Of a stretch of 64,000 nt of DNA, positions 8,479 to 55,161 are shown piece after piece. The position numbers and the translations under genes are program-made. The notes under the pieces are model-generated. The model was not told the DNA's origin. It worked only from the letters and a program-made list of their open reading frames with translations, and made no database searches. The stretch is from contig CBDBZU010000004.1 of the NCBI GenBank assembly GCA_965213625.1, forward strand, positions 864,001 to 928,000, written 5' to 3'. The stretch comes from a bacterium. Lineage in GTDB: Bacteria; UBA8248. Position 1 is the first letter of the stretch. Each line of letters begins with the position of its first letter.

Positions 8479-8529
8479 GGTATGCGGATTTTGCTTGGGC
8501 GCATCCTAAAAAAACTTGGGGGATGAAAG

Positions 8530-9105: not shown

Positions 9106-9219
9106 TCTCTAAAAACCGAAGAAGTGGATATCTGACATCACTAAATCGTTTTCTCTGTAGAGGCCACCTCTGAACATCTGGTTGGGAACTACCGCGTCGA
9201 GATGAAATAATCACGTCTT

Positions 9220-9924: not shown

Positions 9925-10016
9925 CTTTCATCTCCCTTGTCAGTATGGATCGCTGGTTCATTTCCACTGCGTGTTATAACATATAGGTAAGTAGTCTCAC
10001 CCGGACATATCCAAGA

Positions 10017-10742: not shown

Positions 10743-10745
10743 GGG

Positions 10746-11932: not shown

Positions 11933-12062
11933 CTTTTTCAGATAGCAGGACTTACAAGAAGCCAAATCCATCAAATGCCGACGCCTTTTCTATGCAGAAC
12001 TCCATTTCTGCTAGACTGGGTGAATATAGTTTCTTTCCGAAGTTAAGCTTAGGGAGGTGGTT

Positions 12063-12962: not shown

Positions 12963-12979
12963 TGTCTTGAGGGAGCGAT

Positions 12980-13651
12980 ATGCCAGAAGACTTATCCACA
13001 CAAGGACTGGATGTTTTTCCGGAATACAAAAATTTGGCGGATTTATTTCGAGAAGAAACCGACGGACTTCCGCAGGAATTATGGGAATGGAAGCTGCCAG
13101 AGATGAGTTGGGGAGCCTGGTCGATTAAAGAACAAATCAGTCACACGGCATGGATCCCATATCTTTTTTTCCTGGAATTCTGGCCCCCCGTTTTGTATCC
13201 GGATTCCTTGCCGCGAGATAAATCTCTGGCGGATCAAGGAGGAGCGGACAGAATGCTCGATCCCGTCCGGTTTCCTGGTGCGTCCGATGTTCTGGCAGCG
13301 CTTGATGATGCGTGCGCCTTGTGTCGGGAGGTTTTATCAAGCGAAACGCTTGCCACGCTAAGAAAGAAGGAATTGCCCAGAAAGTATTCGCCGGACAGAA
13401 CGTGGGCGAACGGTGAGCGAGTGATAGATTATTTTCAAAATCTCGTTTTGCCTGCTCATGAGACGGGCTTTCGCAAAGACGAAAACGATCCTTATTTGTA
13501 TTACCAGACGCTTGAGTGCTCTTTCCGCCACATATTGTGGGAATCCTATGTGCACCTAATCACCATTCAGGAGTTCAAGCGAATCAAAGGTTTGTCAATT
13601 CATTCGACCGTTCCTAGAAACGGGTATGCCGCAATGCTCACCTGGGAATAA
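12980..13651 (+). CDS. DinB-like family protein (paralog of 10746-11429)
   Basis: WSIKEQISH and FRHILWESYVHL. Confidence 0.6.
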   Translation: MPEDLSTQGLDVFPEYKNLADLFREETDGLPQELWEWKLPEMSWGAWSIKEQISHTAWIPYLFFLEFWPPVLYPDSLPRDKSLADQGGADRMLDPVRFPGASDVLAALDDACALCREVLSSETLATLRKKELPRKYSPDRTWANGERVIDYFQNLVLPAHETGFRKDENDPYLYYQTLECSFRHILWESYVHLITIQEFKRIKGLSIHSTVPRNGYAAMLTWE

Positions 13652-13728
13652 ATGCGCTCATCCATTGGGATTTTTTCGTTTGTAATTTTGATTCCTGAAT
13701 CTCCCTATATCTACAAAGGAGGGCAATC

Positions 13729-15594
13729 ATGACAACCCCTCGTCGGGGTATAGGTGCGCTGCGTGAGTATTTATATGGTGAAGATATTGGGCAGGCAAAG
13801 ATAGAGCCTGAAGGCCCGATCATAGTGGGCAGATTGGGGAAGTGGCGCATTATCTTCAATGTTGGGCCGCGCGGAATCTATAAAGGAGGGGGTCTTCGCT
13901 TCACACCGCCGAATGGGTTCACTACGCCCCAATTCAATGAAATGACAGATCCGGGATTTTGCAAATTCCGATGTTCGAATGAAGATGTTGTTTTAGTTCC
14001 TTCATTGGTTGAACCTGTGCTCGGTTATACTTTCCTTCCGGCCAGCCTGGAGTTGAAGGTTCAGGATTCCTCTTTGGTGGAAGGTGATTTCATTGAAATC
14101 GAATATGGCTGGACGCCATCCGGAATCCCCGGCGCGCAGGCGCAAGCCCTGGCCATGCCCGTGGAATTCACTTTATCCATTGATTCGACCGGAGGGGGAG
14201 ACTGGGAGCTTCTTCCGGAGCCCCCAACCTTTGATGTGCTTCCCGAAGGGCCATGTTTTCTTTGGGTTACTGCGCCGGCGCAAGTAGTCACTGGCCAGGG
14301 CTTTTCTGTACGGGCTGTGACGCGAGATTGCTTTCATAACGTAGCGACATCAGAGACATCTGTACCGAAGCTATTTTTGCCTGATGAGAACTCGGTTTCT
14401 TTCCGTCAGGAATCGCCCGGAGTTTTTGTATGTGAAAATGTGGTTTTGCAAACCAAGGGCATTCATCGGCTGAAGGTCTTGGCGGATGGATTGCCGGCCG
14501 CTCATACACCACCGATCAAGGTGTTGGATGAAACCCCGGAGCGCATGCTTCTTTTTGGCGACCCGCATTGCATGAGCGGGTTGTGCGTGGGGGAGTACCC
14601 GAGACCATCAACCGCGCGTGAAATCGTGGAGTATGTCCACGCCTATGCGCGGGATTGCGCGGGTGTGGATTTCGCCGCCTGCACCTCTTTGGCCATGCGA
14701 ATGGATGAAGCGCAATGGAAAGAAGTCACTGATGCGGCGAATCGTTTTACTGAAGCGGGTAGATATGTTGCTCTCCCCGCTTATGAATGGTTTGGCATGC
14801 TCGAACAAGACGGGAACAAAAACGTCTATTTCCTGGATGATCAGGATATCCCGAAGCTGGACTCCCGCAGTTCCGACTCCGATCATCCGGAAAAGCTCTG
14901 GAGGCAACTCGATAAATTCGAGGGCCGAGTGATGACGATTCCCCATCATTCGGTAAGTGCTGTGATTGGCACCCGCTGGCGCTGGCACGATCCGAGGTTT
15001 CAGCGCCTCGTCGAAATATACTCTTGTTGGGGCAACTCAGAAGCCAATGGATGTGAAAGGCCTTTGGTCAACCCGGCGCGCTATGAAGGACAAAGCGTGC
15101 AGGATGCGCTTGAGAAAGGATATCGTTTGGGCATCATCGCCGGCTCGGATACGCATACGTCTCAGCCTGGGTTCTCGAATCGATTGCGGCTCAAGAATGC
15201 CTGGAGAGGTGGATTGACTTGTGTATGGGCGGAGACCTTTGATCGGGAAGGGATATTTAGGGCCCTTTGGGATCGGCGTTGCTACGGCACGACGGGAGCG
15301 CGCATTATTCTTGAAATTTTCTTGAACGACGCCCCCATGGGCTCAGAGATTACATTGGAAAAATCGTCTGCGAGGAAACTGAAGATCCGGGCTGAAGCCT
15401 GCTCCCCGGTTCATAAGGTCGTAATCATCAAAAATACGAAAGAAATTCATATAGATGAACCGGGACGGGAGTCGGTCTCTATTGAGTGGGTTGATTCGAA
15501 TGGTAAGGAACGGGAGGCGGATTATTATTATGTGCGCCTGATACAGGACGATGGGGAAATGGCTTGGTCGAGTCCAATCTGGGTGGATGCCTAG
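13729..15594 (+). CDS. PHP-like metallohydrolase (DUF3604/CehA-McbA type)
   Basis: FGDPHCMS, AYEW, IPHH, VEIYSCWG, GIIAGSDTH..PG, RRCYGTTG.RI, YYYVR..Q.DG..AWSSPIW. Confidence 0.85.
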   Translation: MTTPRRGIGALREYLYGEDIGQAKIEPEGPIIVGRLGKWRIIFNVGPRGIYKGGGLRFTPPNGFTTPQFNEMTDPGFCKFRCSNEDVVLVPSLVEPVLGYTFLPASLELKVQDSSLVEGDFIEIEYGWTPSGIPGAQAQALAMPVEFTLSIDSTGGGDWELLPEPPTFDVLPEGPCFLWVTAPAQVVTGQGFSVRAVTRDCFHNVATSETSVPKLFLPDENSVSFRQESPGVFVCENVVLQTKGIHRLKVLADGLPAAHTPPIKVLDETPERMLLFGDPHCMSGLCVGEYPRPSTAREIVEYVHAYARDCAGVDFAACTSLAMRMDEAQWKEVTDAANRFTEAGRYVALPAYEWFGMLEQDGNKNVYFLDDQDIPKLDSRSSDSDHPEKLWRQLDKFEGRVMTIPHHSVSAVIGTRWRWHDPRFQRLVEIYSCWGNSEANGCERPLVNPARYEGQSVQDALEKGYRLGIIAGSDTHTSQPGFSNRLRLKNAWRGGLTCVWAETFDREGIFRALWDRRCYGTTGARIILEIFLNDAPMGSEITLEKSSARKLKIRAEACSPVHKVVIIKNTKEIHIDEPGRESVSIEWVDSNGKEREADYYYVRLIQDDGEMAWSSPIWVDA

Positions 15595-15606
15595 GAAGGA
15601 GCGGTT

Positions 15607-16789
15607 GTGGCGCAAGAAACGGCGGATGCCGTCGTCATTGGTGGTGGTGTGATGGGATGTTCCATCGCCTATCAGTTGGCGAAACGAGGTTTTGGAAAAA
15701 TTATCCTTTGTGAACGCGATGGCATCGCATCTGGTTCCACGGGCGGGTCTTCGGCGCTTTTTCGCATGCACTATTCAAATACAAGCACCATTCAGATGGC
15801 TTGGCGGTCTCTGTTGGCGTTTGAGGGGTTCGAGGAATATTCCGAGGGCAGACAAGCTGGATTCATGCAAACCGGATATTTGGTGCTGGCGAATGATTCT
15901 CTTCGTAATGGCGTGAAAAAAATGTAGAACTTGCACAATCCCTCGGAGTAGAAACGTACTGGATTAAAAAAGAGGAAATTTCTCGACACACGCCCCATGG
16001 GCCCAACTGGAAGATTTAGTGGGTGCGGCTTACGAACCGAGAAGCGGGTATGCTGATCCACATGGAGTGACATCTGGATTTGCGGAAGGTGCGAAAAAAT
16101 ATGGTGCGCAAATACGACAGAATTGTTCTGTGATTGGGGTCAAATTCGATAGCTCAGGTTTGGTATGCGTTGAGACCTTTCGGGATGTTATCGATACTCC
16201 GGTTGTCGTGAACGCTTCCGGGGCTTGGGTGAATAAGGTGGCCGCTTTCAGCGGACACCAATTTCCGGCGGAGGCCATCCGAGAACAAGATACGGTTTTT
16301 TATGCCGTGGGCAGAGATGGCGAGAGGGTTGAATTTGTCGTCTATGATGGTCCGACGCGTTTGTACTACCGCCCGGAGGGGCGAGATTTACTCCTCATAG
16401 GTCGCGACAATATAGAACCCGAGTATGTCGACCCGGATGATTTCAACAAAAAAGGAGACATGGATTTCGTGCTCGATGTTCTGGAGAGGATGCAAAAGCG
16501 TTGGCCCTACTTTGAAAATGCGAAACTATTCCGTGGCTGGGGTTGCTTGTACTGCATTACGCCGGATTGGATGCCCATTCTTGATCGTTACCCCGAAGTG
16601 CCGGGTTACTACATTTGCACAGGGATGAGCGGCCATGGCTTCAAGTTGGCGCCCGCTGTGGGAGAGATGATGGCGGAGTTGATCATGACCGGAAGTTGTG
16701 AGGAGCCGGATATCAGCGACTATCGCCTGGCTCGTTTTGATGAAGGCGATTTGATGCAAAGTGTTTTCGGAACAGGGTTTCAGGGCTGA
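15607..16789 (+). pseudogene. FAD-dependent oxidoreductase (sarcosine oxidase beta/DAO family) with two frameshifts
   Basis: GGGVMG, ASGSTG at the start; YEPRSGYADP, TPDWMP, GMSGHGFK at the end. The linker NVELAQSLGVETYWIKKEEIS lies in a third frame. Confidence 0.85.
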
Positions 16790-16792
16790 AAA

Positions 16793-17572
16793 CTATGGCT
16801 TGGGTCTGGGGTATACTTCGATAAGAGGAAATATTTTTTCAGTATTTTCTTTTAAGCCAAAGAAGACAGGTCCATTGGCTTTTTCACCATTCGCGAGCTT
16901 CTGAAGGTCGAGAGAGCGGCCATCCGGATGATATGCGCCTCCCCCCACTTCTTGTAATACGGCGAGGGGACCTAAGATATCCCAGATTTGGGGTCTATCT
17001 ACCAAGGCGGCGATGGCGCCTCCTGTAGCTGCATATGCTACATGTGCGGAAGCGCTTCCATATGCGACAGATTTTCCTGGATAATCTATTTTGTAAAAAC
17101 GTTTTCGAGAAGAAGGTCCTAGCATCACGGTTTGATTGGTTATTTCCATATCTTTTAGTTTTGGAAGTATCTTCCCGTTTCTTGTGGCGCCCTCTCCTTC
17201 GTGCGCAAGGAACATTTCATCCACAACGGGCATGTAGAATCCTCCGGCGAGTGGCTTTCCGTTTTCCATAACGCCGATGGATACGCCCCAAGTGGGCAGA
17301 CCGTTTAGAAATGGGTTGGTGCCATCAATGGGGTCAACCGCCCAAAGACGGGGGTGCTTCTTATCTTGTATTTCTCCGCCCCCGAGTTCTTCTCCAATAA
17401 CGTCGTCGTTCGGGAACGAAATCTTTAAGCAGGATAGAATGAATTTTTCTACTTCGAAATCGGCTTCGCTCACCAAGCTCCTGTCTTGTTTTTGAATGCC
17501 TATGGCATTGTTCATGAATGACAAAGCCAGTTTGCCCGCATCTTTGAGGGTTTTTTCGATGAATTTAATCAT
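16793..17572 (-). CDS. Inositol monophosphatase family protein
   Basis: VSEAD, GEE, WAVDPIDGT, WD. Confidence 0.9.
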   Translation of the reverse strand: MIKFIEKTLKDAGKLALSFMNNAIGIQKQDRSLVSEADFEVEKFILSCLKISFPNDDVIGEELGGGEIQDKKHPRLWAVDPIDGTNPFLNGLPTWGVSIGVMENGKPLAGGFYMPVVDEMFLAHEGEGATRNGKILPKLKDMEITNQTVMLGPSSRKRFYKIDYPGKSVAYGSASAHVAYAATGGAIAALVDRPQIWDILGPLAVLQEVGGGAYHPDGRSLDLQKLANGEKANGPVFFGLKENTEKIFPLIEVYPRPKP

Positions 17573-17726
17573 GGGAGTACTGGTTACCCCGGTTGCATTG
17601 TACGTGAATCCATCACTTGGGGGTCAACCTATCTTGTGGAGTGAAAACTTTCCAGCTCTTCGGGAAAATCTACTCAATATGTATACACAGCACCCGTTTT
17701 AATTTTGATTAGGATAGGATTTGCGC

Positions 17727-19148
17727 ATGGTTCGCTTGCAAACGGAAACAAAACGATATGATTACACCAAAAGTCCAATCGGGCGAGGCTTGGTGGTTCT
17801 GTCCCTACCGATTTTCGCAGAACTGATTTCTTGGAACATCGATACGATCGCTGAAATTTACTGGGTAGGTCGGTTGGGCTCAGACGCACTCGGAGCGATG
17901 TCGTTGGGATATATGATTCCCATGATGGTGAGGGCGATGGGAATGGGAATTCGAGTAGCGGGGCAAGCGCTGGTTGCGCAAAGAATTGGCGCGAATGATG
18001 AGGCAGGCGCTGCTCTTATAGCGGGCCAATGCATTTTGCTTCAAACGTTCTTCTTCATTCCCTTGTGTAGCGCGGGATATCTGTTCTCGCCTTATTTGAT
18101 GGGATTGATGACATCTGATCCGAGGCTTTTGTACTTGTCGACAATTTATCTCCAAGCCGGGTTTCTCGTGCTTTTGTTCGTTGACGGAATATTCACCCTT
18201 GCAAATATATTTCGTGGCGCCGGTGAGCCGAAATATTCGCTTTGGGGGATGATGATCAATTCAGGCGTCACATTCATCGCAATGCCCGCTTTCATCTTTG
18301 GTTTCGGATTGATTCCCCCGTTCCACTTGGCCGGCGCGTATTACGGATTAGGCATTGGCAGGCTGGCAGGTTGTGTCGTGATGCTAATCATTCTTTTCAA
18401 GGGGAATGCCAGAGTAAGGCTGAAATTACACCATCTGATTCCGCGATCCTCTGAAATGAAGCGCATCCTGGGATTGGGTTGGCCCGCCTGGGGGCAAATG
18501 TTTTTTGAGAGAGGCGCTAACTTGGTATTGGTCTGGATGCTTGCCCCTTTTGGCGCGCTGGCACTTGCGGCATGGGGTCTTGGCAGTCGTGTCAACAATA
18601 TGGGAAGAATGCCCGGATTTTCACTTCAAGGGGCAGTTCGCACGATGGTGGGCCAAAACATCGGTGCGAGAAAGCCTGAGCGGGCCATTCGCAGCGCTTG
18701 GGTGACGGTGGGGGCCGTTGTTTCCATCATGGTTGTCGTCGTCGCAGGCTTAGTTGTCTGGAGCAAAGAAGTCGTTACTTTTTTCGGGGTGAAAGGCGCC
18801 GCCTTGCCCCATGCGGTGATTTGTCTGCAAATCTTATGTGTAGGTCTCGGGTTCGAGGCTACGAGGCGAGTAGTAGCTGGGATTTTTGAAGGAGCTTCAT
18901 CCACCCGGCCTCCGATGATCGTTGAAGCAATCGTTCGCTGGGTCGTGCAGTTGCCGGGCGCCTATATGCTGGCAGTTTGGATGGGATATCGGGAGTTTGG
19001 AATTTGGTGGGCTGTGGCGGCGAGTCAACTCATCGGCGGTTTGGCGCTGTTCTTGTGGTTTGCGTTCGGCTGGCGACGGCGAATAGAAAGTTTGGCACCA
19101 AAGGTCGAGTCATCCGCACCATCAAAGCTTGAGTCTCATGCCTCATGA
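17727..19148 (+). CDS. MATE family efflux transporter
   Basis: YDYTKSPI, WVGRLG..ALGA, AQRIGA, FRGAG, VGQNIGA; about 12 TM segments. Confidence 0.92.
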   Translation: MVRLQTETKRYDYTKSPIGRGLVVLSLPIFAELISWNIDTIAEIYWVGRLGSDALGAMSLGYMIPMMVRAMGMGIRVAGQALVAQRIGANDEAGAALIAGQCILLQTFFFIPLCSAGYLFSPYLMGLMTSDPRLLYLSTIYLQAGFLVLLFVDGIFTLANIFRGAGEPKYSLWGMMINSGVTFIAMPAFIFGFGLIPPFHLAGAYYGLGIGRLAGCVVMLIILFKGNARVRLKLHHLIPRSSEMKRILGLGWPAWGQMFFERGANLVLVWMLAPFGALALAAWGLGSRVNNMGRMPGFSLQGAVRTMVGQNIGARKPERAIRSAWVTVGAVVSIMVVVVAGLVVWSKEVVTFFGVKGAALPHAVICLQILCVGLGFEATRRVVAGIFEGASSTRPPMIVEAIVRWVVQLPGAYMLAVWMGYREFGIWWAVAASQLIGGLALFLWFAFGWRRRIESLAPKVESSAPSKLESHAS

Positions 19149-20521
19149 CATCCCCAAGGCGCTATGACTACACAAAAGGCCCCATCGGTTTCGGGCTGTT
19201 TCGCCTGGCCGTACCCTCATGCCTGGAGCCGATAGCCTGGAACGCCGACATACTGGTCGAAATCTTCTGGGTGGGGCGTTTGGGGCCCGAATATCTGGCT
19301 GCGGTGTCGTTGAGCTTTATGATCATCTTCTTTTTTCGTGCGATTGGTTTCGGCATCAGAATCGCGGGCAGCGCTTTGGTGGCTCAGAGAATCGGAGCGA
19401 AAGAACCTGAACACGCAAGTCACGCAGCTGGCCAGGCGTTTTTGCTGGCGAGCATCTATTACGTCGCCATCAGCATTCTAGGGTATTTGCTGTCAACGTC
19501 TTTGCTAGGTCTTTTAACTTCTGACGCTAAAGTGTTGCGAGTAGGTGTCGGGTATTTACAGGCATCTTTTCTCACCATCGCGTTCGTAGATGGCATTTTT
19601 ACGGTTTCGCATAAATTGAAATCGGCCGGAGAACCTGGAAAGTCCTTGATTGGGCTTGGAATTTCGACGCTCATGTCCATAACGTTCATTCCTCTACTGA
19701 TTTTTGGTCTGGGGCCGTTCACGGGATTCGGACTTCCGGGCTCAGCAATCGGCATCGGAATGGGACGTATTATAGGAATTGCTGTCGTTCTGTGGATTTT
19801 GACATCAGGACGTTCTCGCCTCCGTATCCGGTGGATTCATCTCAAGCCCCATGCGCAAACCATGCGCCGCATCATTTCTTTGGGTTGGCCCGCTGCGGCG
19901 CAAAATTTGCTTGAGCGCGGCGCCCTTCTCATTTTGCTGAAGATTCTGGCGTTGTTTGGGCCGGTGGTGTTAGCTGCATGGGCGATTGGGAATCGGCTCG
20001 GGACGTTTTCGCGATTACCCGGTTTTGGGATTCAGTCTGCCGTCCGGACGATGGTGGGTCAAAACATAGGCGCCGACCGACCGGATCGGGCGCTAAAAAG
20101 CGTCTATCTCGCTACGGCCGGCTTGTTTGTCTTGATGTGTGGCGTGACTATTCTTTTGTATTTTTATGCAAGGGAAATTGTCTTGATCTTTGGTATGAAA
20201 AACGAAGGAATCGACGTTGGCGTCATTTGTGTTCGCATTCTCACAATCGGCACATTGTTTGAAGCTATCCGGCGAATGTTGGCGGGCGCCTTTCAGGGGG
20301 CTGCAAACACGAAACCGCCGATGGTTGTCGAAGCATTTGTCCGGTGGGGTTTTCAGATTCCACTTGCGTATTTTGCCGCTATGCCGTTGGGGTTCGAAGC
20401 TGCCGGTGTATGGGGGGCTATGACGATAAGCCATTTAATGGGTTGCGCATGCCTTTTGGTTTGGTTCTTGGTTTGGAGCAGACGAAGAGGAATAGGCTCA
20501 CATGCGGAAGCAAGATATTGA
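19145..20521 (+). CDS. MATE family efflux transporter (tandem paralog)
   Basis: Same motifs as the upstream gene; ATGA coupling. Confidence 0.92.
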   Translation: MTSPRRYDYTKGPIGFGLFRLAVPSCLEPIAWNADILVEIFWVGRLGPEYLAAVSLSFMIIFFFRAIGFGIRIAGSALVAQRIGAKEPEHASHAAGQAFLLASIYYVAISILGYLLSTSLLGLLTSDAKVLRVGVGYLQASFLTIAFVDGIFTVSHKLKSAGEPGKSLIGLGISTLMSITFIPLLIFGLGPFTGFGLPGSAIGIGMGRIIGIAVVLWILTSGRSRLRIRWIHLKPHAQTMRRIISLGWPAAAQNLLERGALLILLKILALFGPVVLAAWAIGNRLGTFSRLPGFGIQSAVRTMVGQNIGADRPDRALKSVYLATAGLFVLMCGVTILLYFYAREIVLIFGMKNEGIDVGVICVRILTIGTLFEAIRRMLAGAFQGAANTKPPMVVEAFVRWGFQIPLAYFAAMPLGFEAAGVWGAMTISHLMGCACLLVWFLVWSRRRGIGSHAEARY

Positions 20522-44216: not shown

Positions 44217-46961
44217 CTAGAAGTCGGCTCTCAACTGAAAAGAGACTCCGCTGTTGCGGCTTTCGCCTTCGTATTCCAGGCCGAAGGCGAGTTGCGTGCT
44301 TTTTCGAATGGGCAGGGCGTAGCCGAGGGAATAGTGCGTCATTGGCCAGACGCGCAAATCGATCGTGGTTTCCTGTCGCTGGAGAGACTGCGATTCCCCG
44401 AAGTAGAACGCATCGACAAAACTGCTTCCGGTTGCGACGAGACGGCTGATCCGGGCCTTTCCGCTGCGAACCCCCATATTCTGGCGGACGGAAAACCGCA
44501 GGGCGTCACCGCCCCGGAATATATCCCGCCCCCGGGTCCCCACCGACCATCCTTCCGCCCGCAAGGCCGATATGCCGGCCACCATGCCGCCGGCTGCGGG
44601 GACCTCTCCGGTGCTGTGCTCGTAGCTGGCAAATCCACGCCATTTCCCGCCCAACTGGGTAGAGAAGAGCAACTGCTTTCTGAGGGTTTTCGTCCGGATG
44701 TTCCCGAGCGAACCAAAAGTCGCTCCCCAGACACTGCTTTTTTCATCGATGCGCGAGAGCTCCGCCACAAGGTCAAATCCATCGCGCTCGTGTCGCCACC
44801 GGAAGCCGTACTGGCGCCACGGCGCCCGTTCGGTTTCCCACCCGCTGACCGCAGCGAACGGCCGCGGGCCGTTCCCCTCCATTTGCAGCACGAAGCCCCC
44901 TCCGGGACGGGCGAAGAACGGGGCGGCGGCAACGGGACCGGTGGGTTGAATTGAGCCCCGTTCCCGCCACGATGAGCTCTCGCAACCCTCGCACAGTTCG
45001 TGGCGCAGCTGCCAGCGGCCCAGCGTGTCGTCGGCAATATCCATCCCGACGGCATGCGGCCTGCCGGTTCCCTGGCCGAGTTCGACGAACACGCCCCGGT
45101 TCTCGACGCGATAGCCGCCCGGCTGCGCGAGCATGTCCCTGGCGGCGGAACCAAGCGGGGGGTTTCCGGTTTCGACGTCGACGATACCGGACAGTTTCAT
45201 GTTGTAATACGCGCTTCCCACGCCGCCCACGGCAACGTCGACTGACTGCATCCGGTAACCCACGTGAGCGAGAGCGGGGGACAGGGTGATGCGGGCGTTC
45301 CGCAGTGAAACCGCCTGCGTCGCTCTTGCATCGCCGACCGAGCGCGGCAGGTGGACCCGTCCCTGCATGGTCACAGCGCTGCCCAGGTTCAACCGCCCCC
45401 AGCCATAGACGGGGTCCGGCTCGCGGGGGTTGTCAACCCGGGTCCCTACCGGATCCGCAGAGGCGAGCAAAACGGCCTGGACGACCTCCATCGGCATGCT
45501 AGGCAGCCGGCTCTTGAGCACCGCCAACGCGCCGGTCACGAACGGGGCGGCGAAGGAGGTGCCGCTGATTCCGCGACCGCCGGGGCCCACGGCGATGTTC
45601 TCGCCGGGTGCCATCAGGCACCAGTTCCGCGCCGCGCCGCATCCGTTGGAGAAACCCGCGATCTCGCCGCTCCTGTCCATCGCCCCGACGACCAGCCACT
45701 TCCCAAGCAATCCGGGCTCGAACAACGGGGCCTCCTTCCACTCTCCGCCGGAGTTGTAGTCGGCGCAGTCATCGCTCCCGCAGGCCGTTCCCCATATCTC
45801 CTTTAGCGGAATCTTGCGGTCCGGGTTGTCCGGGTCGGGCAGCCAGGTGAAGTTCTTCATGAATTCAACAGCGCTGACGGGCCCCTCGCCCAACCGGCAC
45901 CCGTCCTCCCCGTGGTGGTTTTTCCCGCACATGCGCACCTGATTGTTCCGGGAATTCCACCCCTCGTTCCCCGACGCCCACACCATCACGATGTCCGCGT
46001 TCTCGACCGCCGCCGCGACCTCGGCCATGTCTCGCCTCAGGCCGTCTACGATGATCGGCCCGAACACCGGCAGGGGTAATGTCAGCCAGACCCCTTCCCT
46101 GCCAGCGTATTCACCGAAATAGGATGTCGAGAATCCGATGCTGAAGTTCATCGCCTGCGCCCCGTTGGCAACCGCGTGCCGCACCGCTGCCGGGGGAAGA
46201 CCACCGCCGCTGAGCGCAATCGGGATGATCGACGCCTGCGGCGCGACTCCGTGGAAGTTAGGCGTGGGAATCTGGGTGCCGCCGGCGACTTTTATCCCGG
46301 AAGCCTGCCCGGAATCGTTGCCCCTCGCTCCCGCCGCAATCATGGCGACATAGGTGCCATGCCCTGTCCCGGCTCCTCCGTAGTCGATTTCGAATACCCT
46401 GTCGTTTCCGTTCACCACGTGACGCGGTGCCCTGATCCTGCCAGCCAGTTCCGGATGGGTGATATCCATCCCGTCGTCCACTATCGCGATGCTCACGCCC
46501 TGGCCGAAATAGCCGCGCTCGTAGGCCTTGTCCGCCGAGATGGCACCCAACCCGTGATGGACCCGGAATTCCGGAGTGCGGTAGTCCACGCCATCCGGCG
46601 GGGCGGGAACGCCCAGGTCCACCGGCTGGAAATCGAGTCCAACCGGATTCGGTGCGTGAGGCGCCGGCTCGCTGATAATCGCGGCGCCGCCACCCACGTC
46701 GCCGCCGCAACCGGCCGCCATAAGCAGGAAACACACCAGTATAAACAACCTCGATGATGTAACCCTGGCGATAGATGCGCGGCGCGTGACTTTCTGTGAA
46801 GGGTCAAATCCAAGAGATACCAGGAGTGCGGAATTACATCGTCTCTTTTCGAGCGAGGAAGGGACTAGGCATTTCAGCCTTCCGAGTCTTCTCCTCCGGG
46901 TCTTTCTTGCGGATGAGTTTGCTCGACCGTCATGAAATTCATACTCTGCTCGATCATCCAT
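44217..46961 (-). CDS. S8 subtilase with lipoprotein-like signal and probable C-terminal beta-barrel (true start likely downstream)
   Basis: IVDDG, GHGTYVA, ASGNEG, GTSFAAP, YGWG; LLMAAGC; ends in alternating strands with a terminal Phe. Confidence 0.9.
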   Translation of the reverse strand: MDDRAEYEFHDGRANSSARKTRRRRLGRLKCLVPSSLEKRRCNSALLVSLGFDPSQKVTRRASIARVTSSRLFILVCFLLMAAGCGGDVGGGAAIISEPAPHAPNPVGLDFQPVDLGVPAPPDGVDYRTPEFRVHHGLGAISADKAYERGYFGQGVSIAIVDDGMDITHPELAGRIRAPRHVVNGNDRVFEIDYGGAGTGHGTYVAMIAAGARGNDSGQASGIKVAGGTQIPTPNFHGVAPQASIIPIALSGGGLPPAAVRHAVANGAQAMNFSIGFSTSYFGEYAGREGVWLTLPLPVFGPIIVDGLRRDMAEVAAAVENADIVMVWASGNEGWNSRNNQVRMCGKNHHGEDGCRLGEGPVSAVEFMKNFTWLPDPDNPDRKIPLKEIWGTACGSDDCADYNSGGEWKEAPLFEPGLLGKWLVVGAMDRSGEIAGFSNGCGAARNWCLMAPGENIAVGPGGRGISGTSFAAPFVTGALAVLKSRLPSMPMEVVQAVLLASADPVGTRVDNPREPDPVYGWGRLNLGSAVTMQGRVHLPRSVGDARATQAVSLRNARITLSPALAHVGYRMQSVDVAVGGVGSAYYNMKLSGIVDVETGNPPLGSAARDMLAQPGGYRVENRGVFVELGQGTGRPHAVGMDIADDTLGRWQLRHELCEGCESSSWRERGSIQPTGPVAAAPFFARPGGGFVLQMEGNGPRPFAAVSGWETERAPWRQYGFRWRHERDGFDLVAELSRIDEKSSVWGATFGSLGNIRTKTLRKQLLFSTQLGGKWRGFASYEHSTGEVPAAGGMVAGISALRAEGWSVGTRGRDIFRGGDALRFSVRQNMGVRSGKARISRLVATGSSFVDAFYFGESQSLQRQETTIDLRVWPMTHYSLGYALPIRKSTQLAFGLEYEGESRNSGVSFQLRADF

Positions 46962-48411: not shown

Positions 48412-48695
48412 ATTGATTTCCGCCGCGTCCCGCGAGGACAACGACGCAACCATTGCAATGCAGACTCTTCACGGGGCTCGCATTTGTGCGCGTCCCGGTG
48501 GCGGGTACGGTTTTGCCTTTTTCGAGGCGGAGAAGTGTTATACGTGATGTAGATATCCTTCTCTCGTATTTTGTATCGACAGAAGATCGGGCTTCTGTTT
48601 CGTAATCGACCCGCAATCGGATTAATGCCATACACCGGCTTAGCAGCAACGCGATTGACATCGCTTCCCGGCAATCGACGGGATGCACGCGCCGC

Positions 48696-49490
48696 TCATC
48701 TTCCGCGCGCTAGCAACTCCCAAGAATTGCTGATGAGGAACAGCACCGCCGCCGCTAAGATGATGCACGGCCCCGCGGGCGCGTCCCATTCGACCGACGC
48801 CCAAAGGCCCGCAGCTACCGAGAAAATCCCCGCCAGAACGGCGAGCGCCGCCATCTGCTCGGGCGTTTCGGCGAAGCGCCGCGCTGCCGCCGCCGGTATG
48901 ATGAGCATCGAGGTGATGAGCAGAATCCCAATCAGCTTCATGGCGACTGCGATGATGAAGGCAATCAGAAGCATGAAGACAAACTTCACGCGGAATGTCG
49001 GGACCCCTTCGGTAGTCGCTAGTTCTTCATGCACCGTGACGGCGAGAAGACCTCGCCAGATAAAGGCGAGCGTTCCCAGCACAGCCGCGCCACCCAGGTA
49101 GATCCACCACAGATCCATCGCTCCGACGGCGAGGATGTCCCCGAAGAGGTAGCCCATCAGATCCACCCGAATCGTTTCCATCACGCTGACGGCGAAGATG
49201 CCCACTGAAAGCGCTGTGTGCGAGAGTACGCCCAGAAGCGTATCAACGGCCAGTCTCCTCTGCTTCTGAAGCAGGAGAAGCATCAGCGCAAAGCAGATGC
49301 AAGCGGTGAGAATGCCGAGCCGCAAGTCGATTCCAAAGGCGAAGCCCATCGCCACGCCGAGGAGGGCCGTGTGGGCGAGGGATTCCCCAAAATAGGCCAT
49401 CTTTCGCCAGACGATGAAACATCCCACGGGCCCCGTCACCACGGCTACGCCGACTCCGCCCAGAAGGGCGCGAATCATGAAATCTTCCAT
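48696..49490 (-). CDS. znuB: Zinc ABC transporter permease
   Basis: GCFIVWRKMAYFGESLAH, DTLLG, DLMGYLFGDILAV, EELA..EG, G.LLIT..LIIPAA.A. Confidence 0.93.
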   Translation of the reverse strand: MEDFMIRALLGGVGVAVVTGPVGCFIVWRKMAYFGESLAHTALLGVAMGFAFGIDLRLGILTACICFALMLLLLQKQRRLAVDTLLGVLSHTALSVGIFAVSVMETIRVDLMGYLFGDILAVGAMDLWWIYLGGAAVLGTLAFIWRGLLAVTVHEELATTEGVPTFRVKFVFMLLIAFIIAVAMKLIGILLITSMLIIPAAAARRFAETPEQMAALAVLAGIFSVAAGLWASVEWDAPAGPCIILAAAVLFLISNSWELLARGR

Positions 49491-49530
49491 CAGGTGCTCC
49501 TGCGGAGGCATCTGCCGAGTTCGCTGATCC

Positions 49531-50142
49531 TCATTGCGGAAACCCCAAAACCAGCAAGTCGTCGGTGAACTCCATGACGAGGTGGAGATCGTGTGAAATC
49601 ATCAGGACGCCGCAACCCCTCTCGTCCCTTATCTGCATGATCAGGCGGTGGAGATCGGTTTGTCCGGCCATGTCCACGTTCTGGATGGGTTCGTCAAGAA
49701 CAAGGAGTTCGGGGTCGCGCAGCAGAGCGCGGGCGAGAAGGACGCGCTGGCGCTCACCGCCGGAAAGGGTTCCGACGGGGCAGTCCAGCAGATCCCCTGC
49801 GCCGACTTCCCCGAGGCTCTCTTCCATCTCCTTTCGAGACGGTTTTTGCGTCAAGCGCAACAATCTGCGTACTGTGAGAGGAAGTGTTGGGTCCACCGTG
49901 AAAACCTGGGGGACATAGCCGACCTTGAGGCCCTCCTTTCTGTTCACCTCGCCCGTATCGGGCTTCAGCAGACCGAGCAATATGCGGATGAGCGTGGTTT
50001 TCCCCGAACCGTTGGGGCCGACAATGCAGAATATTTCGTTTGCCGATATCTCAACGTCTATGTCTTCAAAAACAGGCTCCTCCCCGAAGCTCAAAGCTAG
50101 ATCATTGGCGGTAATGAGCGGTGTCCGGCCTCTAATCATCAC
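49531..50142 (-). pseudogene. znuC: Zinc ABC ATPase, C-terminally truncated
   Basis: GPNGSGKT, GYVPQ...DPTLPLTV, LSGGE.QRVLLARAL, LDEP, SHDLHLVM, then an abrupt end. Confidence 0.8.
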
Positions 50143-50189
50143 CGGACTCGGGGCGACGGCCGTTGATTTCCAGAACGGGCGTCGCCATC

Positions 50190-50371
50190 TGAATGTCGCA
50201 GGAGCCCATGGGCGCGTGGATCTCCCGGAGGATATCGGTCACCCTCCTGCTGAGCGGTATGAGTCTCGCGCCGCGCGTCCGGCAAAGCGCCCCGGCTCGT
50301 TTCAGGGCGTTCTCGATAAATGCCCCGTGGTCGTGGTCCTTGCCTTGAAAAAGATTGCTGTGCAATTTCAC
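50190..50371 (-). pseudogene. Zur/Fur regulator N-terminal remnant
   Basis: HDH..FIENALKRA..LC..RGARL....RRV..IL...H.PMG..DI resembles the proteobacterial Zur N-terminus. Confidence 0.65.
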
Positions 50372-50450
50372 CCGGTGCTTCCCGACCTGATTCTTGAATT
50401 CCAATACGGATCGCTCATCATTGCTCCGTTTCACTGCTGGTTCATGCCCC

Positions 50451-51404
50451 TCAAACGCCGCTCTTCGCTTTTTCAAGGGATACGACGTTCACCGGGTGCG
50501 TGTTGCGGCGACGCTTGTCGAAGCGGATATGCAGGCGCGAGGCATCGGCAAGGCTCAGGCCCGCTTCGCGCAATTCGCTCGGGCTGAATCCCTTGCCGGT
50601 CCGCCAGTCGCCGCGAGCGTCTCGCACGAGGGGGAAAATACCGTTTTCCGCGAGAGTGGGCTCCAAGTATTCTTCCGGCGATTCTTGCATCACCATAGCC
50701 GCGAGGGGCTCACCAACCTCCTCCGCGATATCTTCCGCTGGCCCACTCTCTTTAGCGATTTCCGGTTCAGGTGCAGCAACTTCTGCGGCGCTTTCCGCCA
50801 TCACCAGGGCAAAAACTTCGTCCTCAAGCGGTGTTTCTTCCTCATCCGGCGAATCTGGCATAACCGACGCCGTTCGTATTTCCTCATCCTCGGCAAAGGC
50901 ATCATCGACAGCTTCCGGTTCGTTCTCCTGAATAACCTCCGGCTCAGGCGCGGACGCCTCAGCTAGTTTGCCGGCTGCTTCCGAGGCTGCGACTTCATCG
51001 TCGTGAGACGACACCGTTTCTTCTTGCAACGCTTTTGATTCCGTCTTGCTCAGCAACTCCAGGTCGAGGCCATATTCCTCATATGGCGCTGCTTCACGAG
51101 GAGACCCTGGCGTATCCGGTGATTCATCCGTGACAGGCTCGGCCAATGCCTCAAGGGCGGGAGCATCGCCGCCATCAACCGCGTCCACGCCGTTCACTGA
51201 ACCGGTTGACGCAGGCTCTCCGGAAACGATCAGTTCCAGTTCCTGATGTGAACCAAGACCTTTGTCCTCCGAATTTCCCGTCGCAGACGGAATGCCCGGT
51301 CCGATGGACGCCGGAGGCGGGATCTCATACCCCTCTTCCGATTCAACCCCACCGGCACCCTTGCGACGCGCGATACGGCTTAAAAAATTCTTTTTGATAT
51401 TCAT
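50451..51404 (-). CDS. Acidic low-complexity protein with a C-terminal ribosomal protein eL13 (L13e)-like domain
   Basis: PLVR....R.GKGFS.SEL.EAGLS..DA.RL.I.FD.RRR..H..NV..LEK; GAGGGGG RBS. Confidence 0.82.
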   Translation of the reverse strand: MNIKKNFLSRIARRKGAGGVESEEGYEIPPPASIGPGIPSATGNSEDKGLGSHQELELIVSGEPASTGSVNGVDAVDGGDAPALEALAEPVTDESPDTPGSPREAAPYEEYGLDLELLSKTESKALQEETVSSHDDEVAASEAAGKLAEASAPEPEVIQENEPEAVDDAFAEDEEIRTASVMPDSPDEEETPLEDEVFALVMAESAAEVAAPEPEIAKESGPAEDIAEEVGEPLAAMVMQESPEEYLEPTLAENGIFPLVRDARGDWRTGKGFSPSELREAGLSLADASRLHIRFDKRRRNTHPVNVVSLEKAKSGV

Positions 51405-51488
51405 GCCACCCCCTCGAGATCGGAACCTCGTTGCGTGGAGAACAAAATTCCGGGGGCGGTAGAAACAGGTGAGACAGGCTACGGATTC

Positions 51489-51518
51489 AAGCTAGCGATT
51501 CCGAAGGCCCGGTGTCAA
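51489..51518 (-). promoter_or_regulatory. Putative sigma70 promoter of the eL13-domain gene
   Basis: TTGACA-N18-TAGCTT on the minus strand, about 85 nt before ATG 51404. Confidence 0.5.
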
Positions 51519-51964
51519 GCGGCGTATCGCCGGGCGCGCGGGTTTCAAAGGCGAATATCGACAGCGGGAAACCCGTGCAGATAGCGTGGAGAACAGACTC
51601 TCCTAAGTGAATATTAACGACGCGGGCCAATGTCCCCCGCGGTCGGTAATAATGCTGCTGGTTCACCGGGGCCTCCGAGTCTCCTGCCGCTGCCGAAGCG
51701 GTGAGGTCGTTGCTCTGACTCCTTTCGGGAAATACTTCTGCAGGCACCGGCTTCAGTACGGCCGTAAATATGCCGCCGAATCGTTACATTTCATCCAAAC
51801 CTGAAAATGGAAAATCTCGTATGTGATGATCATCCAACTCTCCGGGACGTCGGTCGTCGGCTAGTTCGTTTCGTGGCAGGGCGCGATTCACGAGTTCAAA
51901 ATACGCTGTTTCCGACTTGTCCGCAGAAGAACATCGCGCCGGAAGAGTAACAAAACCATCGCAC

Positions 51965-52120
51965 TCACGCCAATTGACGCGGGTGGATAGCTCGCAAGGC
52001 GTCTTCATTCTCCCGCTCCGCAAGTTCGAGCTCGTAACGATCCTGAAGATTCATCCAACTCCTTGCGTCCGTGTTGAAATAACGCGCCAGCCGAAGCGCA
52101 ATCTCGGCAGTGATACCCCG
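51965..52120 (-). pseudogene. HigA-family antitoxin C-terminal remnant
   Basis: RGITAEIALRLARYFNTDA..WMNLQ.RYEL. Confidence 0.85.
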
Positions 52121-52208
52121 CACCAAGAGGTCGGACATACGACTGCACCTGACCACAGACCCTGAATCGTTCAAACAACATGTTTGCATTTACGGGGCCG
52201 TCCACATA
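52121..52208 (+). mobile_element. Orphan IS110/IS1111-type right end
   Basis: gaggtcggacatacgactgcacc...ttgc...ggggccgtccacata resembles IS1111-group right ends and shares the cgtccac core with the left-end motif. Confidence 0.6.
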
Positions 52209-52548
52209 CGTTCGGTCGTGGATGGAGGGCATCGAGGATGCCGTGTCCGGCGGTATCGCGATGGCTACGAGGATCGCCTCGGCGGGCTTGCGACCGGACG
52301 CGCAACAACTGGGTACGGGCATGTAGTGCGGGCCGGTGACGGCGCTGTCGCGCGGGAACGCATGCATGGGGCCGAACGGCAGGCCAATGCAGGATTTCCC
52401 CTGACCGTCGGTTTTGAAAGCCCGAGCGGCTCCGTCTCCGTTCGCTTGGCCCTCCCGCGTACGCCTCCCGGCATGGTCTCGCGTCGGCGGGACCGTGCCG
52501 GCGGCGCGGAAAGTCAGGCACACCCAGAAATCGAACGGGGCAAACAGC

Positions 52549-52759
52549 ATGGGCGATGACGAGAGGGGATTCTTCGACACCCGGCGGACTATCTCGGCCT
52601 CTCGCACCGCACACTGGACGGCTACCGCGTGAGGGGGGACGGACCCGCCTTTCACCGCTTCGGCAACCGGGTGCGGTATCGCAGTGGGACCTGGACGCGT
52701 GGGCGGCAAAGCGCCGGGCGACCACGACGGCGGAGGCGGACAGGCTGGGCGCGCGATAA
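52549..52759 (+). pseudogene. Excisionase/AlpA-like HTH remnant
   Basis: Across frameshifts: DYLGLSHRTLDGYRV.G.GPAFHRFGNRVRY..DLDAWA. Confidence 0.7.
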
Positions 52760-53074
52760 GGGCTGGGAGAGCGCACGCTTTCAACTGGGATTTCTCGGTC
52801 GATGGTGACGGCGCTGCGGTCGGCGGCTCTGTGGTGAGAGGGCGCGCTGACTTTCGAGCACGCGGCTGACTTGCCTTCGCTGCGTGTTCGGCATAAGGTA
52901 CGCCAAACGGGACAGGCGACGCTCGGCAGATTTGCGCGCTGTGCGCACTGCCAAGCCGGGCGACAGGTTCGGAGAGATCGCGATGACCATCTTCAACGAA
53001 GGACGATATGCGATCCGCTGGGTGCGGCGGTTGCGGCCACCGCCGGGCGCGCGAAAAATTGTTTCGCGCAGGGG

Positions 53075-53109
53075 TTGACAAGGTCTGAGGGGGCTCCCCT
53101 CACTATAAT
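53075..53109 (+). promoter_or_regulatory. Consensus TTGACA and TATAAT with a 23 nt palindromic spacer
   Basis: TTGACA 53075-53080 and TATAAT 53104-53109; spacing is too long for a normal sigma70 promoter. Confidence 0.35.
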
Positions 53110-53184
53110 CGCCGGATCGCCGGATCGCCGGATCGCCGGATCGCCGGATCGCCGGATCGCCGGATCGCCGGATCGCCGGATCGC
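53108..53184. repeat. Simple sequence repeat (ATCGCCGG)x9 plus ATCGC
   Basis: Directly visible perfect 8 nt tandem repeat. Confidence 0.98.
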
Positions 53185-53775
53185 TCGTATTCACCGCACT
53201 GCTTTTAATCTCCTCCCCCGTTTATGCGGAGACCGTGACGCTCGAATGCCCGTCGAGTGTTGTTGAAGGTGGGTTGGTGGCGCAGGCGACCAACTGCTCG
53301 GACCCGAACCTGCCTATCGGGCATCCCTACTGTGAGTATCGGAACTTCCCCGGTATTGCGATAAACGCACATTCAACTGATCCAACTTCGGCGGGGGTTG
53401 GTCCGAACGGTCGTGATGAGTTCAAGTTTGAAATTCTCGATGCTGATGGTGGGGTGTACGGCGTTTGAGGGGCATGAACCAGCACTAAAAGGGAGCAACG
53501 TTGAGCGAATCCGCATTGGAATTCTGAAATTATCACGGCTCCACCGGATGCGACGAGGAAAATGAGACCCTGCATAACAAGGTTTTCCCCACGTACGGGA
53601 TTTGATTGCATACGAAGCCGAAACCGCCAAAGAGTTGAAGAAGGCGTTTCAGGATTCGGTGAACACGTATATACGCGGCCATACACGTCTGCGGTCCGCT
53701 CTATCACCTAACTCCCGAATAGTAACAATTGTCGGACACTACAATGAGGAACAATAGATCATGAGGATAATGATC

Positions 53776-55161
53776 GAGTTACTGTCAAATGTTGTGTATG
53801 GCCGTCATGAGTTCAGCGGCCTCCCTGCCGGTTTCGTTTTCGTTCACCCCATCGATGAATCTCACGTCGGTGATCACGTCCGCCAGATGACGCAGGCCGC
53901 GTAGCGGCCCCCATCGCTTCTCGGCGCTCATGGCGAGTTGATGAACGAGGCTCAGCGCCGACTTCTCGCTCAGGCAGTTCCTCGTCTTCGCCGTTCGCAG
54001 CCGGATAGTGGCGAAGGTCGACTCGATGGGGTTCGTCGTCCGGATACTCCGCCAGTGCCCCGCCGGGAAGTCGTAGAAGGAGAACAACTCATCCTCGTCC
54101 TTCGCCAGGCACTCGACGGCTTTGGGGTACTTCGCCTCCCAGGTGGCGCAGAAGCGTTCGAACGCGCCCTGCGCATGCGCGCGGGTGTCGGCCCCCCACA
54201 TCTCATGGAGCATCGACTTCGCTTCGCCCTGAACGCTTTTGGGCATCTTGTCGAGAACGTTCGCCGTCTTGTGCACCCAGCAGCGCTGCGCACGGGTCTC
54301 GGGATAAACCTCCGCCAGGGCCAACCAGAACCCCAGACTCCCGTCGCCCACCGCCAGCTTCGCCGCCTTCACGCCCCGGTCACGCAGGCTCAACAGAACC
54401 GCCTGCCAGCTCTCCTTCGACTCCCTAAAGCCTGGTTCCAGGGCCACGAAGCGCTTGCGGCCACGCGCGTCGCAGCCCACAACCACCAATAGACACCGCC
54501 GCTCCCCGCTGCGGACGTTCAAGTAGATACCGTCCGCCCATAGATATACGAACTCCTCGCCATGCCACGCCCGCTTGCGCCACGCGGCGTACTCGCGATC
54601 CCACCCCTCCTTGAGACGTGTGATGCTCGCCGGGGACAAGCCCCCCACCGATTCGCCGAACAGCGCCCGCAGCGCCTCGCCGAAGTCGTTCGTCGAGACC
54701 CCCTTGAGGTACAGCCAAGGGATCACCGCCTCCACATGATTCGTCTTCTTCAGATACGGAGGCAACAACTCCGAGTGGAAGCACCGGCCCGAGCCCGAAC
54801 GGTCCCGCGCCCGCGGCACCTGGACCTCGACCGGGCCCACACCCGTCAATACCTCCCGCGACGGCAGATAGCCGTTGCGAACCACCGCGCGGCGGCCCTG
54901 CGCGTCTTGCTCGCCCGCATGTTCTTCCAGAAAGGCATTCAACTCCGCTTCCACCGCCTGGCGGATGATTCGTTGCGCGCCCGCGCGCACCAAGTCGCTC
55001 AACTCGTCACGGAACGCTGGACTTACAAAGGGTATCGTCTTATCTTCTCTCATGGTGGCGCATCTCCTTGTGCTGAATGACCGGGCTCTTTGACAAACCC
55101 ATTTCAGCAGGATGCGCCGCCTTTTTCAATTCAGCTCATACACAACATCTGACAGTAACTC
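53776..55161 (-). mobile_element. IS256-family element
   Basis: 25 bp terminal IRs with one mismatch (53776-53800, 55137-55161) enclosing the transposase. Confidence 0.95.
53785..55053 (-). CDS. IS256 transposase
   Basis: RNGY, VPR.R, LYLKGVST, WADG, ESKESW, GDG..G, QRCWVHK, RTTNPIES. Confidence 0.96.
   Translation of the reverse strand: MREDKTIPFVSPAFRDELSDLVRAGAQRIIRQAVEAELNAFLEEHAGEQDAQGRRAVVRNGYLPSREVLTGVGPVEVQVPRARDRSGSGRCFHSELLPPYLKKTNHVEAVIPWLYLKGVSTNDFGEALRALFGESVGGLSPASITRLKEGWDREYAAWRKRAWHGEEFVYLWADGIYLNVRSGERRCLLVVVGCDARGRKRFVALEPGFRESKESWQAVLLSLRDRGVKAAKLAVGDGSLGFWLALAEVYPETRAQRCWVHKTANVLDKMPKSVQGEAKSMLHEMWGADTRAHAQGAFERFCATWEAKYPKAVECLAKDEDELFSFYDFPAGHWRSIRTTNPIESTFATIRLRTAKTRNCLSEKSALSLVHQLAMSAEKRWGPLRGLRHLADVITDVRFIDGVNENETGREAAELMTAIHNI

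Follow-up and report, generated by a model that had tools for sequence, protein, structure and literature searches.

An L13e-type ribosomal protein domain on a polyacidic bacterial protein confined to one Nitrospinota genus

Introduction

Some ribosomal proteins set archaea and eukaryotes apart from bacteria, and eL13 is reckoned as one of them. What, then, is an eL13-like segment doing at the end of a bacterial gene? The question is raised by a 64,000-nucleotide (nt) stretch of contig CBDBZU010000004.1 (GenBank assembly GCA_965213625.1; the whole stretch is called the window, and all positions refer to it), in which an open reading frame (ORF) on the minus strand, 50451-51404, runs from an ATG start through 317 codons to a stop. 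A first, sequence-only reading had quoted the C-terminal peptide in which this ORF ends, and had proposed an archaeal or eukaryotic eL13 domain on a bacterial acidic protein, horizontally acquired and placed beside zinc-uptake genes. Here, we describe the product as a lineage-specific, cytoplasmic protein from one Nitrospinota genus, built of three parts: a basic N-terminal helix, a long polyacidic and intrinsically disordered chain, and a C-terminal L13e-type domain of 60 residues.

L13e has been described in one study as an archaeal protein missing from the euryarchaea and most thaumarchaea (10.1101/2021.01.31.429008), and a 2011 Pfam tally gives the family no bacterial member (PMC3056875). 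The bare domain match is already in databases, where PF01294 is precomputed and some NCBI entries are named 'ribosomal protein L13e'. A literature search, with supplements outside its reach, found no paper on bacterial L13e-domain proteins. What is new is a known fold in a new architecture and in another domain of life.

The last 60 residues form an L13e-type domain

The last ~60 residues of the protein (residues 256-317; 50454-50639, minus strand) proved to be an authentic domain of the L13e/eL13 type, carried, as had been proposed, by an acidic bacterial protein; Pfam, hhalign and Foldseek agree on this. The Pfam family PF01294 (Ribosomal_L13e; gathering score 24.9) was matched at 29.4 bits by the whole protein and at 32.8 bits by its last 69 amino acids (aa), the match spanning only positions 62-98 of the 180 in the profile. 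The NCBIfam equivalog model for archaeal 50S L13e, NF008914, was matched over positions 24-73 of 83 at 48.3 bits, and its cut-off of 96 bits was not reached by the 317-aa protein. When a profile of the domain from 20 loci was aligned by hhalign with 34 short archaeal-type L13e sequences, the probability was 99.5% (E 6e-23) over 48 ungapped columns. A phmmer search of PDB sequences gave 70 matches at E up to 1; those listed were almost all named eL13 or L13, the exceptions being two IcmE/DotG rows without a passing stretch. The best match was a microsporidian eL13 (E 2e-7), and the archaeal protein of Pyrobaculum calidifontis (9e6q_AH) was matched at E 2e-5.

The structural evidence was obtained with AlphaFold2 (AF2). 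With an alignment of 84 rows (50 family members and 34 archaeal-type L13e), residues ~256-315 were modelled at a predicted local distance difference test score (pLDDT) of 94-97, as a beta-hairpin, two short helices, a DKRRR loop and a C-terminal helix. In a Foldseek search of the PDB with this model, the top 50 hits were all chains of ribosome or pre-60S entries, at a root-mean-square deviation (rmsd) of 2.3-3.2 Å over 61-70 columns, except for the second-ranked hit (14.2 Å over 112 columns), and the chains that recurred from the PDB phmmer search are labelled eL13. Two points weigh on the other side. With 20 family rows only, AF2 folded the domain poorly (pLDDT 52), and that model was not used for the fold search. 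The confident model, moreover, owes its quality to the archaeal-type L13e sequences in the alignment and to a network that learned from ribosome structures, which makes it a confirmation of the sequence evidence and no addition to it.

The proposed short archaeal-type pattern also held up. Judged from its sequence, the domain is closer to short archaeal L13e than to eukaryotic eL13, given the NF008914 match and an archaeal alignment that stays ungapped through the last helix. It keeps the archaeal DKRRRxxHxxNVxxL spacing, and G270, G272, F273, S274, E277, A288, D296, R298, R299, N306 and L310 are invariant across the 50 bacterial and 34 archaeal rows. Short-form archaeal L13e (about 74-103 aa; PF01294, NF008914) shares with the domain the same core over the 48 ungapped columns at 58% consensus identity, as well as these invariant residues and the spacing; the best single match reached 62% identity over 45 aa, with a Thermoproteota MAG (metagenome-assembled genome) protein. 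Eukaryotic eL13 (~200 aa) has the same central-core fold (Foldseek rmsd 2.3-2.6 Å over ~70 columns, 31-38% identity), but carries long N- and C-terminal extensions that are absent from the window domain. Of the three phmmer alignments shown, the two with eukaryotic proteins break off at query residue 56, short of the last helix.

The protein as a whole is nevertheless no stand-alone L13e/eL13, which is small and basic in archaea and ~200 aa long in eukaryotes. Archaeal L13e is basic throughout, whereas here the domain makes up the C-terminal fifth of a 317-aa bacterial protein with an isoelectric point (pI) of 4.2, calculated from composition, and is preceded by 255 non-homologous residues.

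Among the Atlas structural neighbours of the C-terminal domain (P0007) are three clusters of 88-118-aa hypothetical proteins, with template modelling scores of 0.52-0.74 by row. These clusters have no Pfam family, are labelled Bacteria, most commonly Acidobacteriota, and may be stand-alone bacterial relatives.

A basic helix and a variable acidic chain precede the domain

Residue counts and net charges confirmed the basic N-terminus and the long Glu/Ala/Pro-rich stretch described in the earlier reading. Residues 1-20 (51345-51404, minus strand) hold 6 Lys/Arg and no Asp/Glu (net +5.5), with a helix predicted by the 84-row model at residues 3-13; R10 and R13-R14-K15 are conserved in the family. 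Residues 21-255 (50640-51344, minus strand) hold 64 Asp/Glu versus 7 Lys/Arg, together with 34 Ala and 24 Pro (net -57), and the domain itself holds 13 Lys/Arg (net +6). The acidic stretch is predicted to be disordered, its pLDDT being mostly below 50, and in the same model 167 of the 317 residues of the protein are below this value.

Conservation differs along the chain. Residues 21-120 are moderately conserved (EIPPP, LEL), while homologs differ in both the sequence and the length of residues 121-255; in an alignment column the commonest residue has, on average, a frequency of 0.85 within the C-terminal domain versus 0.45-0.55 within residues 121-255. Among 109 family members the acidic chain ranges from 146 to 541 aa, and each protein has 0-3 copies of an acidic-aromatic motif, E-[EG]-Y-G-x-D-[LF]-E-x-L, most commonly as EEYGLDLELL, QEYGLELEVL or EGYGDDFEAL. 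In the window protein the conserved motif EEYGLDLELL lies at residues 109-118 (51051-51080, minus strand). A composition check revealed no signal peptide or hydrophobic segment in the 317-aa protein, and every 19-residue window held 13 hydrophobic residues at most, with Ala counted. The cytoplasmic reading rests on the lack of a hydrophobic segment in any such window and of Asp/Glu at the N-terminus.

The family is inherited within one genus as two old paralogs

A word-indexed search of 5.8 billion proteins returned 117 homologs (174-555 aa), and for nearly all of them a PF01294 match was already on record. Where names are given, they are 'ribosomal protein L13e' or 'hypothetical protein', from Nitrospinae/Nitrospinota MAGs and one 'Rhodospirillaceae' MAG. 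In a PF01294 profile search of the 51 species genomes of the phylum, 18 gave a match, with 1-3 matches each, and all belong to one genus: the window's own genome and 17 of the 22 others. None of the 28 genomes of the other 14 genera matched; this is a weak negative, since the same search was silent on all 14 control genomes, four archaea among them. One of these, Sulfolobus acidocaldarius, presumably encodes L13e, and the genome search seems to miss short L13e genes. A pattern scan of 185,579 species genomes gave 24 loci, namely 19 of this family, 3 archaeal and 2 from other bacteria; the 19 come from MAGs titled Nitrospinota, Nitrospinaceae or merely 'bacterium'. In the five genus members without a match (94-100% complete), the hydrolase gene that flanks the family locus elsewhere is present and no such gene stands beside it.

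The window's genome holds two family copies, the window copy, which we call type B, and a 373-aa type A copy elsewhere on the contig. Type A synteny was common to 14 of the 17 loci fetched: upstream on the same strand lie genes for an alpha/beta hydrolase, an FMN reductase and a luciferase-like monooxygenase, and downstream an NmrA-like gene and TRAP transporter genes. Type B was found in the window's genome, in G014, in G031, where it is broken, and in two further MAG contigs, which makes the window copy the rarer, patchily kept second paralog. The two types share ~135 nt upstream, including a promoter element, and ~100 nt of 3′ flank, including a hicB-like start; therefore, the duplication carried the gene together with its own signals. 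In the domain tree described below, the type B copies branch together within the family with a support of 95. Mean column identity in the domain is 84% over 20 loci. We conclude that the gene is vertically inherited within the genus as two old paralogs and is under strong selection.

As a side observation, the G031 type B copy is split into two frames of 300 and 98 aa (G031:C1:1935400-1953500, about 8040-9162); it is decaying there and intact in the window.

We considered whether the segment might be misassembled archaeal DNA or contamination, and this is ruled out by the occurrence in 18 genomes of the genus, the synteny, the pattern scan and the agreement of contigs. Contigs of three sequencing runs, which may be the source data, match 48500-50490, 50507-50786 and 50867-51387, differing from them at no more than one position; a single contig of run X1 continues to 52235, and in the other two the contigs reach 51991, with a separate piece covering 52034-52235. 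Another run, X5 (word share 0.14), gave three short pieces of 90-99% likeness, from which no habitat was inferred, and the small word shares found in further runs are no evidence of habitat either. Of the earlier claim of horizontal acquisition, a recent import into this genome does not stand, the gene being inherited in one genus at a syntenic site. One compositional feature counts against the overall reading preferred below: the GC content at third codon positions is 57.9% in the gene versus 69-82% in its neighbours.

The nearest relatives of the domain adjoin DruE-like helicases

Searches with the domain profile showed where else such domains occur. The short proteins retrieved were family fragments, L13e proteins of 74-103 aa, and fusions of L13e with HHH_5 of 127-142 aa; the named L13e sources among them were Desulfurococcales, Ignicoccus and Thermoproteota. 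Outside the family, longer proteins were few, with four of 550-930 aa at the foot of the best 120 of 137 matches, all ending in the domain. The long proteins (L058, L061, L068; P0129, P0131-P0133) carry a C-terminal L13e-type domain with a WR[PTC]GKGFS core. In all three loci that could be viewed in context, from a Thermodesulfobacteriota MAG, a Gammaproteobacteria MAG and a metagenome contig (L058:382-6157, L061:1609-4382, L068:1885-8728), the gene overlaps the start of a large helicase gene directly downstream, and the first proteins of these two-gene loci are 521/666-930 aa long. Two of the helicases were scored and matched the PADLOC DruE models (E 8e-114 and 1.9e-65), and the third was judged by eye only. 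The long proteins themselves matched no PADLOC model, DruH included, and may be an undescribed Druantia-like partner. A metagenome match, L069, was dropped as a chance WRTGKGF inside an unrelated ORF.

A canonical DruH-like partner from a Clostridium butyricum plasmid neither matched L13e nor resembled the partners that end in this domain; therefore, the L13e-type domain is not a general DruH feature.

Among the short proteins, those with HHH_5 (P0160, P0163-P0165, P0168, P0169, P0171, P0172, P0174, P0180, P0183, P0193) have an N-terminal L13e core and a C-terminal helix-hairpin-helix, and Atlas clusters of ~199 aa with the L13e and HHH_5 pair are labelled Promethearchaeota.

The domain tree was built by a quick method from 73 rows and 66 columns and is unrooted, with only 14 family rows and no eukaryotic ones; the archaeal origin of its 55 short sequences was judged by length and a few source names, and an archaeal row had to match at least 45 profile positions to be included. 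On this tree the 14 Nitrospinota domains and four long-protein domains lie on one side of a branch with a Shimodaira-Hasegawa-like approximate likelihood ratio (SH-aLRT) of 98, which separates them from the archaeal L13e set, and the Nitrospinota domains are themselves one group (98). The phylogeny and neighbourhoods of bacterial homologs, which the earlier reading had named as a check, give one supported bacterial group, and three long proteins with the domain adjoin DruE-like helicases. On this unrooted tree the bacterial L13e-type domains look like one lineage. Because the domain groups with DruE-adjacent bacterial C-termini, a bacterial route for it is as likely as direct capture from an archaeon.

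This grouping raises an alternative for the window protein, namely a DNA- or single-stranded DNA (ssDNA)-binding factor tied to phage defence or its control, with a domain derived from the C-terminus of a DruE partner and a tail acting as DNA mimic or regulator. We regard it as unlikely, though it carries the most weight among the alternatives. In its favour are the SH-aLRT of 98, the overlap with a downstream helicase in three of three long-protein loci, two of them matching DruE models, and the hicA/hicB modules or remnants that flank family loci. In canonical DruH, the C-terminal domain is reported to form part of the ssDNA site (10.64898/2026.05.12.722862). The window gene, however, has no adjacent DruE helicase and no homology to the partner beyond the C-terminal domain: the long proteins share the WR[PTC]GKGFS core and are its nearest tree neighbours, but the window protein has neither their large N-terminal part nor their helicase pairing. 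In the window's genome, the long protein P0132 was matched only over its residues 577-687 and 615-687, leaving its N-terminal part without a homolog, and matches to DruE models stayed at generic helicase level (24-27 bits), far from both copies. PADLOC gave no match for the window protein (P0001), as it gave none for the long ones. Further, the main (type A) locus lies among the metabolic genes listed above, and searches of 50,697 phage records, of viral contigs and of 72,556 plasmids gave no relative of the domain.

The domain may anchor an acidic tail to structured nucleic acid

The reading that we prefer, tentatively and somewhat short of an even call, is that the domain is an RNA or ribosome-precursor anchor tethering an acidic, motif-bearing tail. 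By sequence, the domain probably binds structured nucleic acid, as in L13e. It retains every invariant residue of archaeal L13e, among them the basic R268 and K297-R300, and a role as nucleic-acid anchor is suggested because the same residues (R298, R299 and the G-x-G-F-S turn) are invariant in bacterial and archaeal rows. The target would most likely be structured RNA, for instance ribosomal RNA (rRNA) or pre-rRNA; the anchor would tether the acidic tail, and the repeated motifs might recruit or chaperone basic partners. RNA-binding nucleolar proteins likewise carry acidic tracts. The bacterial proteins YbxF/YlxQ of the L7Ae/L30e family are a precedent for the RNA-binding use of an archaeal/eukaryotic ribosomal-protein fold outside the core ribosome; they differ in fold from L13e, stand alone and are widespread in Bacillota, and we know of no acidic tail on them.

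Several considerations count against such an anchor. We know of no eL13 site in bacterial 23S rRNA. That of the window's genome, the only one considered, is ordinary, with 2997 nt over all 2925 model positions. In ribosomes eL13 is partly buried in rRNA (10.1101/2021.01.31.429008). The net charge of the protein, -45, disfavours nucleic-acid binding unless the tail is engaged elsewhere, and the DruE-adjacent position of the nearest domain relatives points toward DNA rather than RNA. An rRNA expansion that could host eL13 was considered and set aside, as nothing stands out in the 23S of this genome.

A more specific proposal, rather unlikely on present sequence evidence, is that the archaeal-type eL13 module would dock on the bacterial large subunit or its precursors and display the polyacidic tail at the ribosome surface, with the same domain lineage serving as the nucleic-acid-sensing end of an undescribed DruE partner. 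If such docking were true, Bacteria would have their first ribosome-associated protein of the eL13 type. A domain that still binds RNA would show, as an experiment of nature, how the core of a ribosomal protein can be put to use away from its ribosome, and one that binds DNA would give a handle on an unstudied Druantia-like partner. Strong selection has preserved the L13e fold in bacteria in two settings that are new for it, at the end of an acidic disordered protein and at the end of large proteins paired with DruE-like helicases.

The charge pattern admits another explanation, a self-associating scaffold or condensate former of the PopZ kind, in which a block polyampholyte would use the L13e-type domain as an interaction or oligomerisation module. 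The blocks of +5.5, -57 and +6, a long disordered linker between two conserved ends, and the variation of repeat number and chain length across the family are consistent with this; the domain, however, retains the archaeal L13e invariants and not a new interface, and the net charge of -45 argues against self-coacervation. We consider it improbable. Quite improbable is an exported, host-directed eukaryote-like protein whose domain would target host rRNA or the nucleolus and whose motifs would mimic eukaryotic acidic peptides. Such a protein would suit a domain type otherwise confined to archaea and eukaryotes, with no bacterial member in the 2011 Pfam count (PMC3056875), as well as the repeated acidic-hydrophobic motifs and the restriction to one genus, but there is no signal peptide, hydrophobic segment or evidence of secretion, and the spacing is of the archaeal rather than the eukaryotic type. 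That the ribosomal large subunit in this genus has gained eL13 as a genuine stoichiometric component is very improbable: the protein retains the full set of archaeal L13e invariants and bears the public annotation 'ribosomal protein L13e', but its gene is missing from 5 of the 22 other genus genomes (94-100% complete, flanking hydrolase present), exists as two divergent paralogs with one copy broken in G031, encodes 255 non-homologous residues before the domain and lies outside any ribosomal operon, and the 23S rRNA is of ordinary length. The annotation is accordingly misleading for genome-based inference of ribosome composition.

The gene carries its own signals beside a decaying zinc locus

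Both upstream signals noticed in the earlier reading were found again. A Shine-Dalgarno-like GAGGGGG, read from the sequence, lies 4 nt before the ATG (51409-51415, minus strand) and is a good ribosome-binding site. Further upstream, alignment of upstream regions revealed a promoter-like element (51489-51518, minus strand) of TTGACA (51513-51518), an 18-nt spacer and TAGCTT (51489-51494). TTGACA is invariant in the six of six aligned upstream regions, which represent both paralog types and five genomes, and the second hexamer, TAGCTT in the window, reads TAG-NNT in the other copies. The promoter is plausible on this conservation, despite a consensus promoter scan of 49900-52000 that gave no sites.

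The sequence-only reading had placed the gene directly upstream of zur-znuCB and likened it to the Zur-linked paralogs of ribosomal proteins. Zur-regulated ribosomal paralogs are zinc-free copies of bL31, bL36, bS14 and others, and the sole likeness is that a gene for a ribosomal-protein domain adjoins zinc-uptake genes in the window. Whereas those paralogs copy bacterial ribosomal proteins, the only family matches of the window protein are archaeal/eukaryotic L13e models. The 114-aa ORF taken for zur (50132-50476, minus strand) had no Pfam match and no Zur match in the PDB. By sequence comparison it is a chimeric remnant: its hicB-like start recurs in the 3′ flank of other family loci and is joined to the beginning and end of a Zur fragment that has lost its middle. 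G014 has a longer version of this stretch, which matches a Fur-family regulator and E. coli Zur in the PDB (E 3e-8 and 2e-7); stop codons interrupt it, and the FUR profile does not detect it. That profile gave no match beside the gene in the window's genome (G000) or in G014, and its sole match in the window's genome lies ~975 kb from the gene. The neighbouring genes for a znuC-like ABC ATPase (203 aa; 49531-50142, minus strand) and a znuB-like ABC-3 permease (271 aa; 48696-49511, minus strand) lie downstream in two of five type B loci (the window and G014 only), the other type B loci being judged within 1.5-3 kb of downstream sequence, and in none of 14 type A loci. The gene stands beside a decaying zur-znuCB locus, and nothing indicates Zur regulation, a Zur box not having been searched for. 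The zinc analogy was abandoned on the pseudogene state of zur, the lack of a FUR match beside the gene and the unconserved znuCB adjacency; nor is the protein a paralog of a bacterial ribosomal protein.

The description of the gene as intact among pseudogenes holds locally, with the zur remnant, hicB-like fragments and a transposase around it. The fragments lie at about 50366-50450 and 53602-53757, the latter near the transposase. A hicA-hicB pair lies directly 3′ of type A in several genomes, for instance G026 (L021:7932-8600; hicA-like, 84 aa, and hicB-like, 116 aa), and elsewhere only the truncated hicB-like start is found. The transposase, 2.4 kb upstream of the gene (53785-55053, minus strand), is an intact IS256/Mutator-type protein of 422 aa (Transposase_mut, E 3.6e-67). 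Between the gene and the transposase (51500-53700) no ORF had a Pfam match. Within this interval, contig depth in three runs rises across 52842-53342 from ~70-190 to 8,800-20,000 at 53009-53175, which marks a very high-copy repeat; the region has no convincing ORF, and a 137-aa frame at 52781-53194 contains a tandem GDPAIRRS repeat. Downstream of the znuCB-like genes, 44217-46961 (minus strand) encodes a 914-aa protein with a subtilase domain (Peptidase_S8).

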